Part shown: one piece after another, positions 37,534 to 43,785 of the stretch | Layout: every line of letters begins with the position of its first letter | Position numbering within the stretch: the stretch's first letter is position 1 | Assembly: GCF_056746865.1 (NCBI RefSeq) | Contig: NZ_JBWKMP010000003.1 | DNA length: 64,000 nucleotides | Source: a plasmid | Reading direction: 5' to 3' (one strand) | Position numbers and translations under genes: made by a program | Notes under the pieces: generated by a model | Databases searched by the model: none | Told to the model about the DNA's origin: nothing | The model's input: only the letters and a program-made list of their open reading frames with translations

Positions 37534-38285
37534 TATTGGTGCTAAATTTATTTCTTATAGCGACAATCATCGTCCTGCGGCGGAAGCCACTATCAGCCAT
37601 ATGCGACGTATTCGCTCGGAGGACGAATTTGATCGCCCAGTCTTTAAGTGGGTCGGCGGCAAATTTTCTGCACTGCCCATTATCTTCGAACACCTGCCCC
37701 ACGGAAAACGGTTGATAGAACCTTTCGTTGGAGGTGGCGCTGTTTTCACTAATGCCGGATTTAAAAGCAACCTGCTGAACGATATCAATAATGACCTGAT
37801 TAACTTCTATCAGACATTGCAGCGTGAAGGGCATTCTCTTATCACACTGGCATATCGTTTTTTTCAGGATTACAACTCTGCTGATGCATTTTTGAATGTT
37901 CGCAATGCATTCAACAATGGTGCTTATGATTCCCTTCACCATGCAGCGGCGTTCCTGTATCTCAATCGTCATTGTTTTAATGGCGTCACTCGCTATAACC
38001 GTAAAGGAGAGTTCAACGTCGGATATGGAAAGCAGAAATCACCCCACTTCCCTCTCGCGGAAATGGAGGCGTTCCTGGCTGACGATATTTCAAAGTATTC
38101 GGAATTTGTGTCCGGCGATTTTGCTGGTGTAATTGAGGCTGCCGGGAATGATGATGTGATTTTCTGCGATCCCCCCTATGAACCATTGCCTGACACTACC
38201 GGATTTACAAATTACTCAGGGCATAGCTTTAGGTTTGAAGATCAACAACGGCTGGTGTCACTGCTGGTGGATGCTGGATTTGCCC

Positions 38286-39191
38286 CTATATTTCCAGACA
38301 CCTGTTATCACTTAACCCATTACTGGCCCGCTGCCGTAGATATTCCCGTGGCGAGCGATAACCCAGTGCACTATGCGGATGCCATTCGTTATAATGCTCG
38401 AACGCCTCTGCAAGGTTCTTTGCTGCCGTTAACCCGTCTGGTTTAGGCATGATACTGATGTAGTCACGCTTTATCGTTTTCACGAAGCTCTCTGCTATGC
38501 CGTTACTCTCCGGACTCCGCACCGCCGTGTTCTTCGGTTCAAGCCCCAACATCCGGGCAAACTGCCGTGTTTCATTAGCCCGGTAGCATGAACCATTATC
38601 CGTCAGCCACTCTACTGGAGACGCCGGAAGCTCGTTGCCGAAGCGGCGTTCCACCGCTCCCAGCATTACGTCCTGTACTGTTTCACTGTCGAAGCCGCCC
38701 GTAGTGACTGCCCAGTGCAGTGCCTCACGGTCACAGCAGTCCAGCGCGAACGTGACTCGCAGTTTTTCTCCGTTATCACAGCGGAACTCGAACCCGTCAG
38801 AGCACCATCGTTGATTGCTTTCTTTCACGGCCACTTTGCCAGTATGTGCCCGTTTCGATGGCGGTACAGCGGTTTTTCGCTCAAGCAACAGCGCATTCTG
38901 GCGCATGATCCGGTAAACACGTTTGGCATTGATCGCAGGCATACCATCAAGTTCGGCCTGTCTGCGAAGCAGCGCCCATACCCGACGATAACCATACGTG
39001 GGCAGCTCTCCGATAACATGGTGTATACGGAGAAGCACATCCGTATCATCTGAGTGACGGCTGCGGCGACCATCTTTCCAGTCATCGGTTCGTCTGAGAA
39101 TGACGTGCAACTGCGCACGCGACACCCGGAGACAACGGCTGACTAAGCTTACTCCCCATCCCCGGGCAATAAGGGCGCGTGCGCTATCCAC
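38286..39191 (-). CDS. insD: IS2 transposase InsD (orfB)
   Basis: 301 aa, very close to IS2 InsD as recalled ([38 protein letters not shown]..). Confidence 0.9.
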
Positions 39192-39514
39192 TTTTTTGCA
39201 CGCCCGTATTCAACGGCTTCTTTAAGGAGTTCATTTTCCATCGTTTTTTTGCCGAGCAGGCGCTGGAGTTCTTTAATCTGCTTCATGGCAGCAGCAAGTT
39301 CAGAGGCAGGAACGACCTGCTCTCCTGCGGCCACAGCAGTAAGACTTCCCTCCTGGTATTGCTTGCGCCAGAGAAATAACTGGCTGGCTGCCACACCGTG
39401 TTGCCGGGCAACAAGGGAGACCGTCATTCCCGGTTCAAAACTCTGCTGAACAATAGCGATCTTTTCCTGTGTAGTACGCCGTCTGCGTTTCTCCGGTCCT
39501 AAGACATCAATCAT
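39149..39514 (-). CDS. insC: IS2 InsC (orfA)
   Basis: [26 protein letters not shown]..; start at the internal ATG of the track ORF. Confidence 0.85.
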
Positions 39515-39780
39515 CTGCTCTCCAATGACTAGTCTAAAAACTAGTATTAAGACTATCACTTATTTAAGTGATATTGGTTGTCTGGAGATTCAGGGGGCCA
39601 GTCTAGATGCCCACAGACGCGGAGCGAAAATTGTGATAACAAACAGTGGTGCGCCTAACATTCGCGAACTTTACGTTGGCAATGGCTTCAAGGTGTATCC
39701 TATGCCATCCCGTCGCTCTGTATCCTGTAAAGCATCAACGCGAATGATAGCTAACGACATTATAGCCACACTTAATTAAG

Positions 39781-39914: not shown

Positions 39915-40202
39915 TCATTTTGTATCCTCAGACTCTGCAAGCATGAGGATAGCATGGCGGATCATATTCAATTTGCTGCGATTATGCTTTTTGCTTAACG
40001 CATCAAGTACCTGGTACTCGTATTCATTGAAGCCAACACGAATGGATTTAAAATCACGTGGGGCGTCCTTATCGAGCACTTTGTTGTCTTCTGGTTGCTC
40101 ACCCGGCACCAAATCAGCTTTGCTGGCAAAAGCCTCAATTCGGCGTTCAAGATCGAGGTCTTTTACTTCGGGGGCTTTTACCGATTTACGAGGCTTAATC
40201 AC
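39915..40202 (-). CDS. ParG-like small partition protein
   Basis: 95 aa, directly downstream of and overlapping the ParA-like ATPase gene. Confidence 0.45.
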   Translation of the reverse strand: MIKPRKSVKAPEVKDLDLERRIEAFASKADLVPGEQPEDNKVLDKDAPRDFKSIRVGFNEYEYQVLDALSKKHNRSKLNMIRHAILMLAESEDTK

Positions 40203-40836
40203 TTAATAACTCCTTAACCAACATCTGGATTTCACCTTTAGCTTTCCCGTTGTCCATCTCAACAACGCCCTTCCCTTCAGCCATACAATCGCGGTAAACC
40301 TTGCGATCGCGAATGATGGTTTTCAGCAACTTCAGTTGCGGATATTCAGCCAGGTACTCTTTGGCCTCATTGGCTTCATTCACAACCGGATTGGATGGGG
40401 CCATTGTTAAAACTGCGCACGCCTTAATGCTAGGATTAGGCATCAGATCCAAAGCCTCTTCAAAGACTTCAACAAAATGCGCCAGCGTGTCTAAATCTGG
40501 CTGAGATGGCCTGAATGGAACAAGCAAAACATCCGCCGCAGTAATACCGGTGCGCATCTCTTTGCTATCACGACCAGCGGTATCAACAACCACAAATTCA
40601 TAACGCTTGTCCAGATCAAGAAGTGTTTCACGAATATTCCCAAACTTCTGGACGCAATGAATTACTGGAGAAACCTCTGCCGCATTACGGTCCGATGCCC
40701 AACGGGCAGATGTTCCTTGCTTATCTGCATCAAGTAGAACTACGTCCTTATTTGCGCGGGCAAGCTCCGCACAAATGTTTACGCTGGTGGTTGATTTGCC
40801 ACAGCCACCTTTTTGGCTGGCTACCAATATAATCAT
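40195..40836 (-). CDS. ParA/ParF-type partition ATPase
   Basis: Deviant Walker A SQKGGCGKSTT; 213 aa, small-ParA size. Confidence 0.7.
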   Translation of the reverse strand: MIILVASQKGGCGKSTTSVNICAELARANKDVVLLDADKQGTSARWASDRNAAEVSPVIHCVQKFGNIRETLLDLDKRYEFVVVDTAGRDSKEMRTGITAADVLLVPFRPSQPDLDTLAHFVEVFEEALDLMPNPSIKACAVLTMAPSNPVVNEANEAKEYLAEYPQLKLLKTIIRDRKVYRDCMAEGKGVVEMDNGKAKGEIQMLVKELLSD

Positions 40837-40992
40837 ATCCGTCCCTCGGTGTTATTTTGGTATCAAAATGGCTCCAAACAGAAGCCTTATTGATGCGGTT
40901 TTGGCTCTATAGTGGAGTCACTATGCTTTGCAAAAGTATAACACTAAACACTCGAAATTTGCCCTCTGTTGCATCCTGTTTAACACGAAGTC

Positions 40993-41055
40993 AGCCTCAA
41001 AGTGGAACCAGACACAAAACAGCACCACAACAACACCGTTTTGGTACTAAAAGAG
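40993..41055. repeat. repeat block flanking the ParA/ParG-like operon (right copy)
   Basis: AGCCTCAAAGTGGAACCAGACACAAAACAGCACC and CAACACCGTTTTGGTACTAAAAG; related to 39837-39903. Confidence 0.45.
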
Positions 41056-41121
41056 CACCAAATTAGAACCATAACAGTATAAAAAAGGCTGCAAATTGCA
41101 GCCTTTGAAGATGTAGATTTG

Positions 41122-41487
41122 TTAATCAGGGAGTGAGTTTGCCAAATTCTGTGCAGAGCGGCTTTTCGAAACGCCAGGTTTTTTAACATCCGCTGAGGCT
41201 GAGGGGTTTCCTTCAGGGTTTTCCCGAACTTCAGGCGAAATTTCAAGAAATGAAACCAGCATTTTTCTGATCACTTCAGGGCTATTATCACCGGATAAAA
41301 GCGATGCCAACATGGGAGGTAATCTGCTATCAACCTCGCCAAGAGCGATACCTGCAAGCATCGCTGTGCGCGCCATATCATTGCGATCTCTTAATGGATG
41401 GCCCTCAAGTTTTGCATCAGCATATTGCTCACTGGCGTTAAGACCAGGACGAAGATAAAACAATACTTTTCGACGTTCCTGAGACAT
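41122..41487 (-). CDS. parR: ParR-like centromere-binding protein
   Basis: RRKVLFYLRP...RNDMARTAMLAGIAL parallels R1 ParR; immediately downstream of parM. Confidence 0.6.
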   Translation of the reverse strand: MSQERRKVLFYLRPGLNASEQYADAKLEGHPLRDRNDMARTAMLAGIALGEVDSRLPPMLASLLSGDNSPEVIRKMLVSFLEISPEVRENPEGNPSASADVKKPGVSKSRSAQNLANSLPD

Positions 41488-41497
41488 GGCAACCTCA

Positions 41498-42454
41498 TCA
41501 ACCGATAGATTTTAGACCATAGACAAGAGCAAGTTGTGGATCATCAGCAACGAAAAACCTATCGTCACGAATGTTTACCTGCTCACGGATAGCATCAGCA
41601 ACAAGCGGCGCGCCGCCACCAATGACCATAACATGCGTGTATCCTTTGAAATCACTGATCACATCCAGTACGCGTGTACGGAGTCGTTCTATGCTTGACG
41701 AAATGGCTTTCTTAACATCATCAATAGCAGACGGATCGTTAATATTGTCGGTCAAATAATCCTCATCATCACGATTAATGATTAATTGATCGACATTATA
41801 ATTAGAGGTTTCGGTATTCGCTTTTGCAAGTGCCTGTCTGACCTCTTTAGTTACCAGCGAAACGCCGAGATTAGAATCGCCAAATACGCGAGAAACGGCG
41901 GTCATTTGCCCGGCGACCATCGACACATCCAGAGTAGTCCCACCAAGATCAACAATAAGCACAGAATGCGCTGGCACAAGGCTGTCGCACAGACCGATCC
42001 CTGCGGGTATTGACTCCGGGCGCACAGTCACTTTTTTGATAGTAAAAACCTGACCTTTGTTAAGGGTGACTGGTCGCATCAGGCTGGCCTTTTTCCGCTC
42101 AATATTTTTCATGTTGTATTGTGCGTCGTCGTCATAAAACTCTGCCAGTGGCAACGTGACAACTATTTCCACTTCTTGAGGCTCAATGCCACTTGTAAGC
42201 AGGGCATGATGAACAGCAAGCACATTAAGCGGGCTGTATTGCCATTCAACGTTATTCGTCGGCAGCACATCCGGCGAGATCAAGTCATATGAATATTTTT
42301 CGTCATCAATGATGTAGTTAAACGGCTTTCCTGCGCCAAATGTGGCGGACCATCCACGTTTAAAACTGTTCGGACAGATATGGGTTCGAGTTTCCCCGTC
42401 TTGTTCCCACAGCATTTTGATATTGGTAGAACCATCGTCGATAAAAATGCGCAT
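41498..42454 (-). CDS. parM: ParM (StbA) actin-like partition ATPase
   Basis: MRIFIDDGSTNIK..HICPNSFKR..AVHHALLTSG..IVDLGGTTLD..YTHVMVIGGGA is colinear with R1 ParM; start at the second ATG. Confidence 0.85.
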   Translation of the reverse strand: MRIFIDDGSTNIKMLWEQDGETRTHICPNSFKRGWSATFGAGKPFNYIIDDEKYSYDLISPDVLPTNNVEWQYSPLNVLAVHHALLTSGIEPQEVEIVVTLPLAEFYDDDAQYNMKNIERKKASLMRPVTLNKGQVFTIKKVTVRPESIPAGIGLCDSLVPAHSVLIVDLGGTTLDVSMVAGQMTAVSRVFGDSNLGVSLVTKEVRQALAKANTETSNYNVDQLIINRDDEDYLTDNINDPSAIDDVKKAISSSIERLRTRVLDVISDFKGYTHVMVIGGGAPLVADAIREQVNIRDDRFFVADDPQLALVYGLKSIG

Positions 42455-42555
42455 CATATTGCTCCACTTCTGAGACACATTTGAGAAAGAATTGAATTTT
42501 ATATGAGAAAACAAAATAAGACCAGAAGTTAGATAGCGTAAAAAGCATCAAACAA

Positions 42556-42644
42556 GAGACGTAAGAGAGACGCAAAAGAGACTTAGATGATACATGATGT
42601 ACCCACGATACCCGTTTGAGACAAATCAGAGACAAATGTGAGAA
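42556..42644. repeat. parC-like centromere iterons
   Basis: GAGAC / GAGAA cores at 42556, 42567, 42578 and 42618, 42629, 42640 with 11-bp phasing; two triplets flank a ~35-bp core upstream of parM. Confidence 0.5.
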
Positions 42645-42706
42645 GTAAGAAATCTGAAGAGTGAAAATCACAAAGTGGAGAAGATTTAAGAAAAAGGAGG
42701 TGTTAG

Positions 42707-42991
42707 ATGAGTGCAATAGCGACCAGTGACACAGTTTGTTCTGGTCATGGAGGATTCCCTCCGCGACCTGTAGCAGAAACAGTTTCCTGGTTTACCGTAA
42801 ATGGAAAGCCAGTGGTTGTAGATGGGGGAGCGTTCCCCAGCCATACAGACGGAAATAGCGCGCACCCCGGATCAGCCGTATCGACGCGCTCATGGTTTGC
42901 AATAGGCGGGAAAGGAGTTGTTTGTGTGGGAGATCCCCTTTCTTGTGGCTCAGTCATCGCCAATGGTGAGGCAATTTTTCAGGTGTCATAA
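42707..42991 (+). CDS. PAAR-domain spike-tip protein
   Basis: 94 aa; PAAR-like pattern (CSGHGGFPP...VNGKPVVVDG...GDPLSCGS); strong AAAAAGGAGG Shine-Dalgarno. Confidence 0.55.
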   Translation: MSAIATSDTVCSGHGGFPPRPVAETVSWFTVNGKPVVVDGGAFPSHTDGNSAHPGSAVSTRSWFAIGGKGVVCVGDPLSCGSVIANGEAIFQVS

Positions 42992-43785
42992 TGCTTGATT
43001 CAATCGCTGAAGTTAATGCATTCAAAATTCTAAATGCATCAGGCACAACTACGCCTGCATCTATCACGCTAAGTAAAACAGCGTCATCCAATGCCAGTTC
43101 TCTGGAAGAGAATATCCAGGCTCTTATCCTGAAGGATAAAGCATACCCGGCGTCGGTGGTTTCATGGGTCAATCAGCTTTCTGTCTTTTCAGAACAACTG
43201 AAAACTGTCAGTGCAGAAGCAACCAATTTAGCCGACTCGCTGTCTCCGTATACTTCGCCAACTGAATTACTTCAGATGAAAATTGGCTGGGAATGTTACG
43301 TCAAAGGTAATGAGTTATCTCCTGCGCCAGAATTTGCTCTCGTAACAGTTATGGGAGATACCCTGCATCCGCAATCGCTTATTGACGCGTTGGCAGCATT
43401 TGAACTGGTGCCAATCACTTCAGCCATGACCGCTATAAATGCAAAAGTTCAGGCGTCAAGCGGGGAGGCTTCAGGCAACGGAAGTTCCACCGGAACAACA
43501 CAGCAACCAGCACTAACAGAAGAAGAGATCAAAGCACTAAAAGACGCTGTGGAAGCAGCAACAGAACAAATAAATGCAATAAACAACACGAGCAGTAGTC
43601 TCTCAACACTTGTACAGCAAGTTAAGGACTCTACCGGAAAAGCCAAACAGGGACTGGAGAATGCTGTAGCTATTACGTTAACCGGTTCTCTACTGGGCGA
43701 TGAAGTAATGAGTCCGGCAATCAGTTTGATCATGCCACAAGGTGTGATCGATGCGCTCCAAAACAACACTAAAAAGGAACCATAA
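42991..43785 (+). CDS. hypothetical protein
   Basis: 264 aa; ATG overlaps the PAAR stop. Confidence 0.45.
   Translation: MLDSIAEVNAFKILNASGTTTPASITLSKTASSNASSLEENIQALILKDKAYPASVVSWVNQLSVFSEQLKTVSAEATNLADSLSPYTSPTELLQMKIGWECYVKGNELSPAPEFALVTVMGDTLHPQSLIDALAAFELVPITSAMTAINAKVQASSGEASGNGSSTGTTQQPALTEEEIKALKDAVEAATEQINAINNTSSSLSTLVQQVKDSTGKAKQGLENAVAITLTGSLLGDEVMSPAISLIMPQGVIDALQNNTKKEP

Follow-up and report, generated by a model that had tools for sequence, protein, structure and literature searches.

In plasmid R1, the parC region spans 159 bp and consists of 11-bp iterons in two sets, five on each side of a 39-bp promoter core; each iteron takes approximately one ParR dimer, and parC serves both as centromere and as operator (PMC2241845). 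The parC region of R100 (NC_002134) displays CA-rich 11-bp units, present in 4.9 and 3.3 copies according to Tandem Repeats Finder, on either side of a TTGATT-16-TAAACT element, and these units stop just before the ribosome-binding site of parM.

The stretch of plasmid DNA analyzed in this work (64,000 nucleotides, hereafter the window) contains upstream of its parM gene an array of short phased repeats which, with a probability that we estimate at about 0.8, acts as both centromere, of the parC type, and operator for a type II ParMRC system (R1/StbAB) on a D6-like, P1-related phage-plasmid. Such an array is an ordinary and expected feature that will not surprise the specialist. The centromere proposed here would belong to a homologous ParMRC system carried by a phage-plasmid, with an iteron sequence of its own and a tripartite layout. 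Nothing was annotated in the intergenic region in the database records of the locus that we examined, and the literature surveyed on D6-like elements named only the genes cop, parA, and stbB along with parM (PMC6799933).

Carrier element and parM-parR operon

The carrier is a D6-like, P1-related phage-plasmid of E. coli of around 90 kb. Positions 41000-43000 of the window differed from the E. coli plasmid NZ_LR890273 by a single mismatch in 2,001 bp, and the D6 locus showed the same gene order and the same neighbors (upfC/upfB-like genes and a ParA-like module). The operon comprises the following features:

41498..42457, minus strand: parM, actin-like segregation ATPase (Pfam StbA_N, 2.1e-69; ParM_N, 8.8e-56)
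42462..42465, minus strand: ribosome-binding site of parM, GGAG, read directly from the sequence
41122..41487, minus strand: parR (stbB), ribbon-helix-helix ParR family (Pfam Plasmid_stab_B, 3.1e-14)
41084..41106, minus strand: intrinsic-terminator-like hairpin located 16 bp past the parR stop codon, with a stem of 10 pairs and a T run

RefSeq records start parM at the second ATG (42454). The amino acid sequence of ParM was 53% identical to ParM of R100/R1 and 94% identical to StbA of D6; at the DNA level, parM was around 80% identical to the gene named 'StbA' in phage D6, and it is annotated as parM in NZ_LR890273. The start of parR lies 10 bp past the parM stop codon, and its product was 32% identical to ParR of R100 and matched the ParR/StbB structure of pB171 (PDB 2JD3) over residues 3-78 (E 3.9e-7). 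The predicted gene content is therefore that of a ParMRC system, with a gene for an actin-like ParM ATPase and, next in the operon, a gene for a small ParR adaptor. The sequence-only reading of this DNA had situated the array upstream of parM, and the operon that directly adjoins it is indeed a true parM-parR operon belonging to the R1/StbAB family.

Some observations were made on the surroundings of the operon. Relative to NZ_LR890273, otherwise 99.9% identical, the window presented a 1,331-bp insertion (38275-39605, with a 5-bp overlap at the junctions) that disrupts a Dam-family methyltransferase gene; the ORF at 39149-39559 within this insertion presumably resembles orfA of the IS3 family (IS2-like). 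A further ORF was found upstream of the array:

42707-42991, plus strand: PAAR-motif ORF of 94 aa (Pfam, 6e-07), homologous to D6 orf57 and P1 upfC

In P1, UpfC has been placed at the tip of the baseplate needle (2025 preprint). The PAAR ORF was unannotated in the 8 RefSeq records of this allele that were fetched (8/8), and one Shigella record names its counterpart 'alanine racemase'. No sigma-70-like promoter directed toward this ORF was found by PSSM scanning (best score 4.5). A small palindrome, GTGAAAATCAC (42661-42671), precedes the upfC-like start by 36 bp; sequences of the window type and pGF60-C, a divergent relative described below, keep it, but D6 does not. For the late promoters of P1, a 9-bp inverted repeat to which Lpa binds is reported (PMC10695390).

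Directly downstream of parR and 1.6 kb from the array there is a second partition-like module (39915-40836, minus strand), composed of a gene for a 213-aa ATPase of the ParA/MinD type (Pfam AAA_31, MipZ, CbiA) and an overlapping gene for a 95-aa protein for which no Pfam match was obtained. Upstream of the ATPase gene, at 40840-41075, direct and inverted repeats of the form TTTGGT(G/A)C / GGTACCAAA were present. Since this module adjoins parR and has its own, different repeats, two partition systems seem to lie next to each other on the element.

Repeat array upstream of parM

Direct reading and scripts located GAGAC cores starting at 42556, 42567, 42578, 42618, and 42629 and a GAGAA core at 42640, that is, two triplets with an exact start-to-start distance of 11 bp, just as the sequence-only reading had it. 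The separation of around 35 bp given there for the triplets was also right, going from the end of the third core (42582) to the start of the fourth (42618), which amounts to 40 bp from start to start. On the plus strand the units are AAGAGACGTAA GAGAGACGCAA AAGAGACTTAG from position 42554 and TTGAGACAAAT CAGAGACAAAT GTGAGAAGTAA from position 42616. Tandem Repeats Finder reported two arrays of period 11 (42554-42582 and 42617-42643), and a repeat-family search grouped the same units. The number of cores had, however, been under-counted, as the array becomes 4+4 once the degenerate GATAC cores at 42589 and 42607 are included. A third set lies closer to parM. The complete set of features is as follows:

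42618..42644, minus strand: distal iteron set B, GAGAC at 42618, GAGAC at 42629, and GAGAA at 42640, with 11-bp spacing
42607..42611, minus strand: first core belonging to set B, a degenerate GATAC in the phase of this set, constant in eight window-type sequences
42594..42606, no strand: centre of the gap between the distal sets, with no iteron and no convincing promoter
42589..42593, minus strand: fourth core belonging to set A, a degenerate GATAC in the phase of this set, constant in eight window-type sequences
42556..42582, minus strand: distal iteron set A, three GAGAC on the plus strand, equivalent to GTCTC on the parM-sense strand
42472..42509, minus strand: proximal iteron set C, GAGAC at 42472, GAGAA at 42483, degenerate GAATT at 42494, and GAGAA at 42505

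All cores of set C share a single 11-bp phase, and 7 bp separate the end of this set from the Shine-Dalgarno sequence of parM. Cores with exact 11-bp spacing within sets lie between 15 and 190 bp upstream of the parM ATG, of which six are perfect, two are degenerate, and a further three to four form the proximal set; sets A and B occupy the part located 100-190 bp upstream of the parM-parR operon. The phase slips by 7 bp across the gap (18 bp from 42589 to 42607), and a slip of the same size occurs between set C and set A (51-bp step).

The motif GAGAC-N6-GAGAC was found three times in the 64-kb window, always in this array (0.04 expected), and the five occurrences of GAGAM-N6-GAGAM in the window were all within the intergenic region upstream of parM (0.25 expected). 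In the 252-bp intergenic stretch, 9 GAG pairs were counted at lags of 11, 22, and 33 bp vs. 1.2 ± 1.2 in dinucleotide-preserving shuffles (n = 1000), none of which reached 9 (0/1000); shuffling was confined to this stretch because the region is purine-rich. Chance and low complexity are thus excluded as the origin of the repeats. The iteron core is short (4-5 bp). No palindromic half-site, as occurs in some ribbon-helix-helix operators, was visible at the cores, and no Rfam family was matched in 41000-43100 at E ≤ 1. An ORF of 118 aa that runs across the array (42360..42716, minus strand) was discarded as a gene; it overlaps the start of parM out of frame and was without annotation in 11/11 annotated records of the locus fetched.

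Position of the promoter

A scan with the sigma-70 consensus returned no promoter site in 41000-43000, and for this reason a PSSM scan was written. As positive control, the promoter region located between the iteron sets of R100 was the top match in its own sequence (11.1). On the parM strand of the window, the top match was:

42496..42524, minus strand: predicted parMR promoter, -35 TGGTCT at 42524..42519, 17-bp spacer, -10 TAAAAT at 42501..42496

This TGGTCT-17-TAAAAT site had a modest score of 9.2, a value that ranks within the top 7% when the window is divided into 281-bp segments. The transcription start inferred from it would be at around 42489, and the predicted leader would measure about 32-35 nt, as compared to the inferred 70 nt, approximately, in R100. 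The aligned site ranked first in the plasmids of D6, S. dysenteriae, and RL465 (TGGATT-17-TAAAAT, 9.6) and third in pGF60-C. The place of the candidate promoter, between the distal and the proximal sets, is kept in four alleles, those of D6, S. dysenteriae, and RL465 among them, and the parM 5' leader, the promoter spacer, and the predicted -10 element are all overlapped by set C. Scanning of E. hormaechei, Proteus, Pantoea, and R100 likewise put the best site between a distal iteron group and the iterons adjacent to the ribosome-binding site. From these comparisons we lean slightly toward an order of iterons, promoter, and iterons resembling that of R1, in which the two triplets would jointly represent the distal group and set C the proximal operator group.

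Variation of the array among relatives

At an identity of at least 95%, the window allele was present in 16 complete E. coli genomes and 2 E. marmotae plasmids. Among 5,426 complete E. coli genomes, 16 were of the window type and one, harboring pGF60-C, was divergent; in PLSDB the window allele was rare (7 of about 120 records). Alignment of eight window-type sequences over 42554-42650 gave 13 variable columns, of which 1 fell in the 40 positions of the cores and 12 in the 57 positions of the spacers (Fisher one-sided P = 0.0066). This distribution indicates that selection acts on the iteron cores. Set B cores were constant in all close relatives, and those of set A in 7 of 8, the exception being an E. 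marmotae plasmid with GCGAC at 42578-82; the spacers between set A cores varied.

The layout of pGF60-C (NZ_CP172188, positions ~1545-1625 of excerpt L004), known from this single record, was that of six contiguous 11-bp units without any gap between triplets: TTGAGACAAAC CAGAGACAAAC CAGAGACAAAC TAGAGACACAC TAGAGACAAGT ATGAGAAACAA. The stretch equivalent to 42583-42615 is missing from it, including the GATAC core corresponding to 42589..42593, and parM and parR are intact. Its proteins were 84% (ParR) and 99% (ParM) identical to those of the window.

In D6-type plasmids (S. dysenteriae, S. enterica, and E. coli RL465) the spacers could not be aligned with those of the window, and the TGAG(A) cores were kept with their 11-bp period. 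D6 itself displayed three cores, a 40-bp jump, and two to three further cores, with a proximal pair at -32 and -21. The window and D6 thus have in common a 40-bp jump that separates their perfect cores, the intervening sequence of D6 being unrelated. A visual comparison of the gap between the triplets in the window and D6, aimed at a common motif or a site resembling that of IHF, gave just a loose likeness of GTGGGT and CATCAT elements, which occur in a different order. The set C cores at 42472 and 42483 were kept in six D6-type sequences, in the window type, and in pGF60-C. RL465 (NZ_LT906557, positions 401-460 of excerpt L017) presented one extra exact 11-bp unit, TGAGACACATT, in the set adjacent to the ribosome-binding site; this exact tandem duplication indicates that the array changes by whole units. 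Tandem Repeats Finder reported nothing in the intergenic region of D6, although phased TGAGA cores are evident there by hand and script reading, so that the thresholds of this program miss iterons with short cores.

Phased GAGA/CTCA cores also occur upstream of parM in an E. hormaechei phage-plasmid and in plasmids of Proteus and Pantoea, whose ParR proteins (43% for Proteus and 31% for Pantoea) are distant from that of the window; an Arsenophonus plasmid carries R1-like AAACCC units at this place. When the GAG lag spectra of eight alleles (window, pGF60-C, D6, S. dysenteriae, RL465, E. hormaechei, Proteus, and Pantoea) were summed, the only peaks were at 11 (35 pairs), 22 (21 pairs), and 33 bp (12 pairs), with at most 6 pairs at any other lag. 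Local shuffles never matched the observed values in each of the six D6-like alleles tested (0/1000).

Two records showed peculiarities of their own. In the Pantoea ananatis plasmid (positions ~610-720 of excerpt L014), distal TTTGAG(N) and proximal (G/A/T)TCTC(A) units are oppositely oriented, so the iteron groups stand in an inverted, not direct, arrangement around a TATTAT element resembling a -10 box. In NZ_CP069647 (positions 498-1458 of excerpt L008), parM is annotated as two overlapping CDS of 693 and 297 nt, which suggests that the gene is frameshifted; this plasmid still holds the centromere array and parR.

Joint divergence of the array and ParR

In relatives, the intergenic region was the most diverged stretch of the locus, with identities of 55-77% between alleles as compared to 84-98% for the flanking coding DNA of parM and the upfC-like gene. 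In spite of this, the 11/22/33-bp phasing of the GAG(A) cores was retained by all eight alleles. Within the D6-like group, ParM proteins were 94-99% identical and ParR proteins 63-84%. In PLSDB, the array was present in 7 records and ParR (at least 95% identity) also in 7; a search spanning the array and parR lists the same seven, from which we infer that the records bearing one and the other coincide. Sequence comparison indicates that ParR and the array change together, whereas ParM stays constant. A simple code linking residues of the ParR beta-strand to the iteron core was considered and rejected, since the ParR of Arsenophonus has a strand of the YL type and yet its iterons are R1-like (ACCC).

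Megablast similarity of the window to about 110 D6-type plasmids ends at 41429, within parR (around codon 20), and at 42509, which is 50 bp upstream of parM. Given that similarity ends at these boundaries, recombination with breakpoints close to 41429 and 42509 may have exchanged the divergent segment. This segment is not continuous, a conserved parM being flanked by the parC array on one side and by most of parR on the other.

Discussion

The sequence-only reading had assigned to this locus the layout of R1 parC, with the promoter between the two triplets. The 11-bp period and the position relative to parM hold, and the triplets as flanks of a promoter are not supported. It is unlikely that the parMR promoter lies in the 35-bp gap (42583-42617) with the triplets as flanking halves of operator and centromere, even though R1 parC has this very design, with its 39-bp promoter core between sets of five iterons (PMC2241845), D6 conserves the 40-bp jump between perfect cores, and a TATCAT hexamer is found inside the gap. 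The best candidates in it require spacers of 19 bp, and their scores (7.1 and 5.8) are close to the median of the background (6.1), whereas the 42524-42496 candidate scores higher and is conserved in position. Moreover, the window and D6 types differ in the sequence of the gap, which is not conserved, and pGF60-C is devoid of the gap and nevertheless retains intact parM and parR; since its ParR is 84% identical, this absence is not a recent deletion from a copy of the window type. The probable place of the promoter is thereby corrected to the region between set A and set C.

The repeats would act only as an operator, governing parMR autoregulation or the divergent upfC-like gene and leaving the centromere elsewhere, in a reading that we regard as very improbable. 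The overlap of the proximal set with the predicted promoter and the fact that ribbon-helix-helix proteins are commonly repressors speak in its favor. In the cited characterized ParMRC systems, however, operator and centromere are the same repeats (PMC2241845), and the distal units, at least eight in number and located 30-130 bp upstream of the -35 element, exceed what repression needs; GAGAM-N6-GAGAM is absent from the rest of the 64-kb window, and the upfC-like ORF at 42707 has no sigma-70-like promoter directed toward it (best 4.5). Still harder to believe is that the array represents iterons of a Rep initiator or the centromere of the ParA-like/95-aa module (40836..39915). Phage-plasmids do carry Rep iterons, repB with iterons being present in D6-like elements (PMC6799933), and the second module is only 1.6 kb away; but no rep gene is adjacent, the array follows the allele changes of ParR, the ParA-like gene has its own repeats of the TTTGGTnC type directly upstream (40840-41075), and phased GAGA/CTCA cores precede parM in Proteus and Pantoea plasmids, where contexts are unrelated.

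For the parC-type centromere and operator that we favor, the behavior of R1 and pB171 offers a model. By analogy with both, the GAGA(C/A) cores would be occupied by ParR dimers in a cooperative manner, with roughly one dimer for each 11-bp unit, and because the units recur approximately once per helical turn, the bound dimers could stack on one face of the DNA as a curved or helical scaffold. As in those systems, such a scaffold would capture the growing ends of ParM filaments and sister copies of the plasmid-prophage would be pushed apart. The centromere function would most likely be performed by the distal sets (42556-42593 and 42607-42644). Considering that set C overlaps the promoter candidate and the parM leader, ParR bound at this proximal set would be expected to repress parMR transcription, in a form of autoregulation. 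The R1 model offers no account of the 7-bp phase slips, either from A to B (18 bp) or from C to A (51 bp).

D6-like phage-plasmids (around 90 kb), which are widespread in E. coli, Salmonella, and Shigella, gain in this way a concrete candidate centromere. No part of the locus evolves faster than the pair of centromere and adaptor, and the 11-bp GAGA phasing is the invariant. This is relevant to partition incompatibility and hence to the question of which phage-plasmids are able to coexist; for ParMRC families of Clostridium perfringens, this principle has already been demonstrated (PMC9426499). The hypervariable centromere-adaptor module, the gain and loss of whole iteron units, and the contiguous variant are a modest addition, for which the known ParMRC incompatibility families (PMC9426499) offer a parallel. 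Tentatively, and as a doubtful proposal, the parC/ParR pair might be a fast-diversifying specificity module that escapes partition incompatibility while its neighbors remain nearly invariant. Were this true, the spacers, the number of iterons, the continuity of the array, and the DNA-binding N-terminus of ParR would turn over under selection, related phage-plasmids could co-reside or replace one another, and the conserved jump of 40 bp (3x11+7) would mark a segrosome geometry different from the U-shape of R1.

Comparison with known systems

The closest solved structure by sequence is ParR of pB171 par1 (PDB 2JD3), with low protein identity; judged by the match, the N-terminal ribbon-helix-helix DNA-binding domain would be common to both proteins. 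The parH/ParG system of TP228 (type Ib) is useful as an analogy only. There, a ribbon-helix-helix protein recognizes an array of 4-bp boxes with variable spacers (PMC3130281); it differs in its ParA-type motor ParF, in the protein family, and in the spacing.

StbA/StbB of D6 shares with the window identical proximal iterons (-32 and -21) and the same promoter candidate. D6 nevertheless represents another allele of centromere and ParR, with 63% identity in ParR and around 55% in the distal intergenic part, and a C is fixed after GAGA in the window type but not in the D6 type.

With parC of R1/R100 the window has in common 11-bp direct repeats in separated clusters immediately upstream of parM-parR. 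The iterons themselves are unlike those of R1, GAGAC on the plus strand of the window (GTCTC/TCTCA in the sense of parM) contrasting with CA-rich units of the AAACCC type. The counts differ as well (3+3 perfect, 2 degenerate, and 3-4 proximal cores vs. 5+5 in R1), and, unlike in R1, a gap without a convincing promoter divides the distal array in two. Moreover, the carrier is a tailed phage-plasmid and not, as for R1/R100, a conjugative IncF plasmid. An R1 parC in the strict sense, with 5+5 iterons of the R1 type around a 39-bp promoter core, was therefore discarded for this locus. Since sequence, number, and partitioning of the iterons all differ, we regard it as a homologous system with a different centromere and not as a copy of R1 parC.
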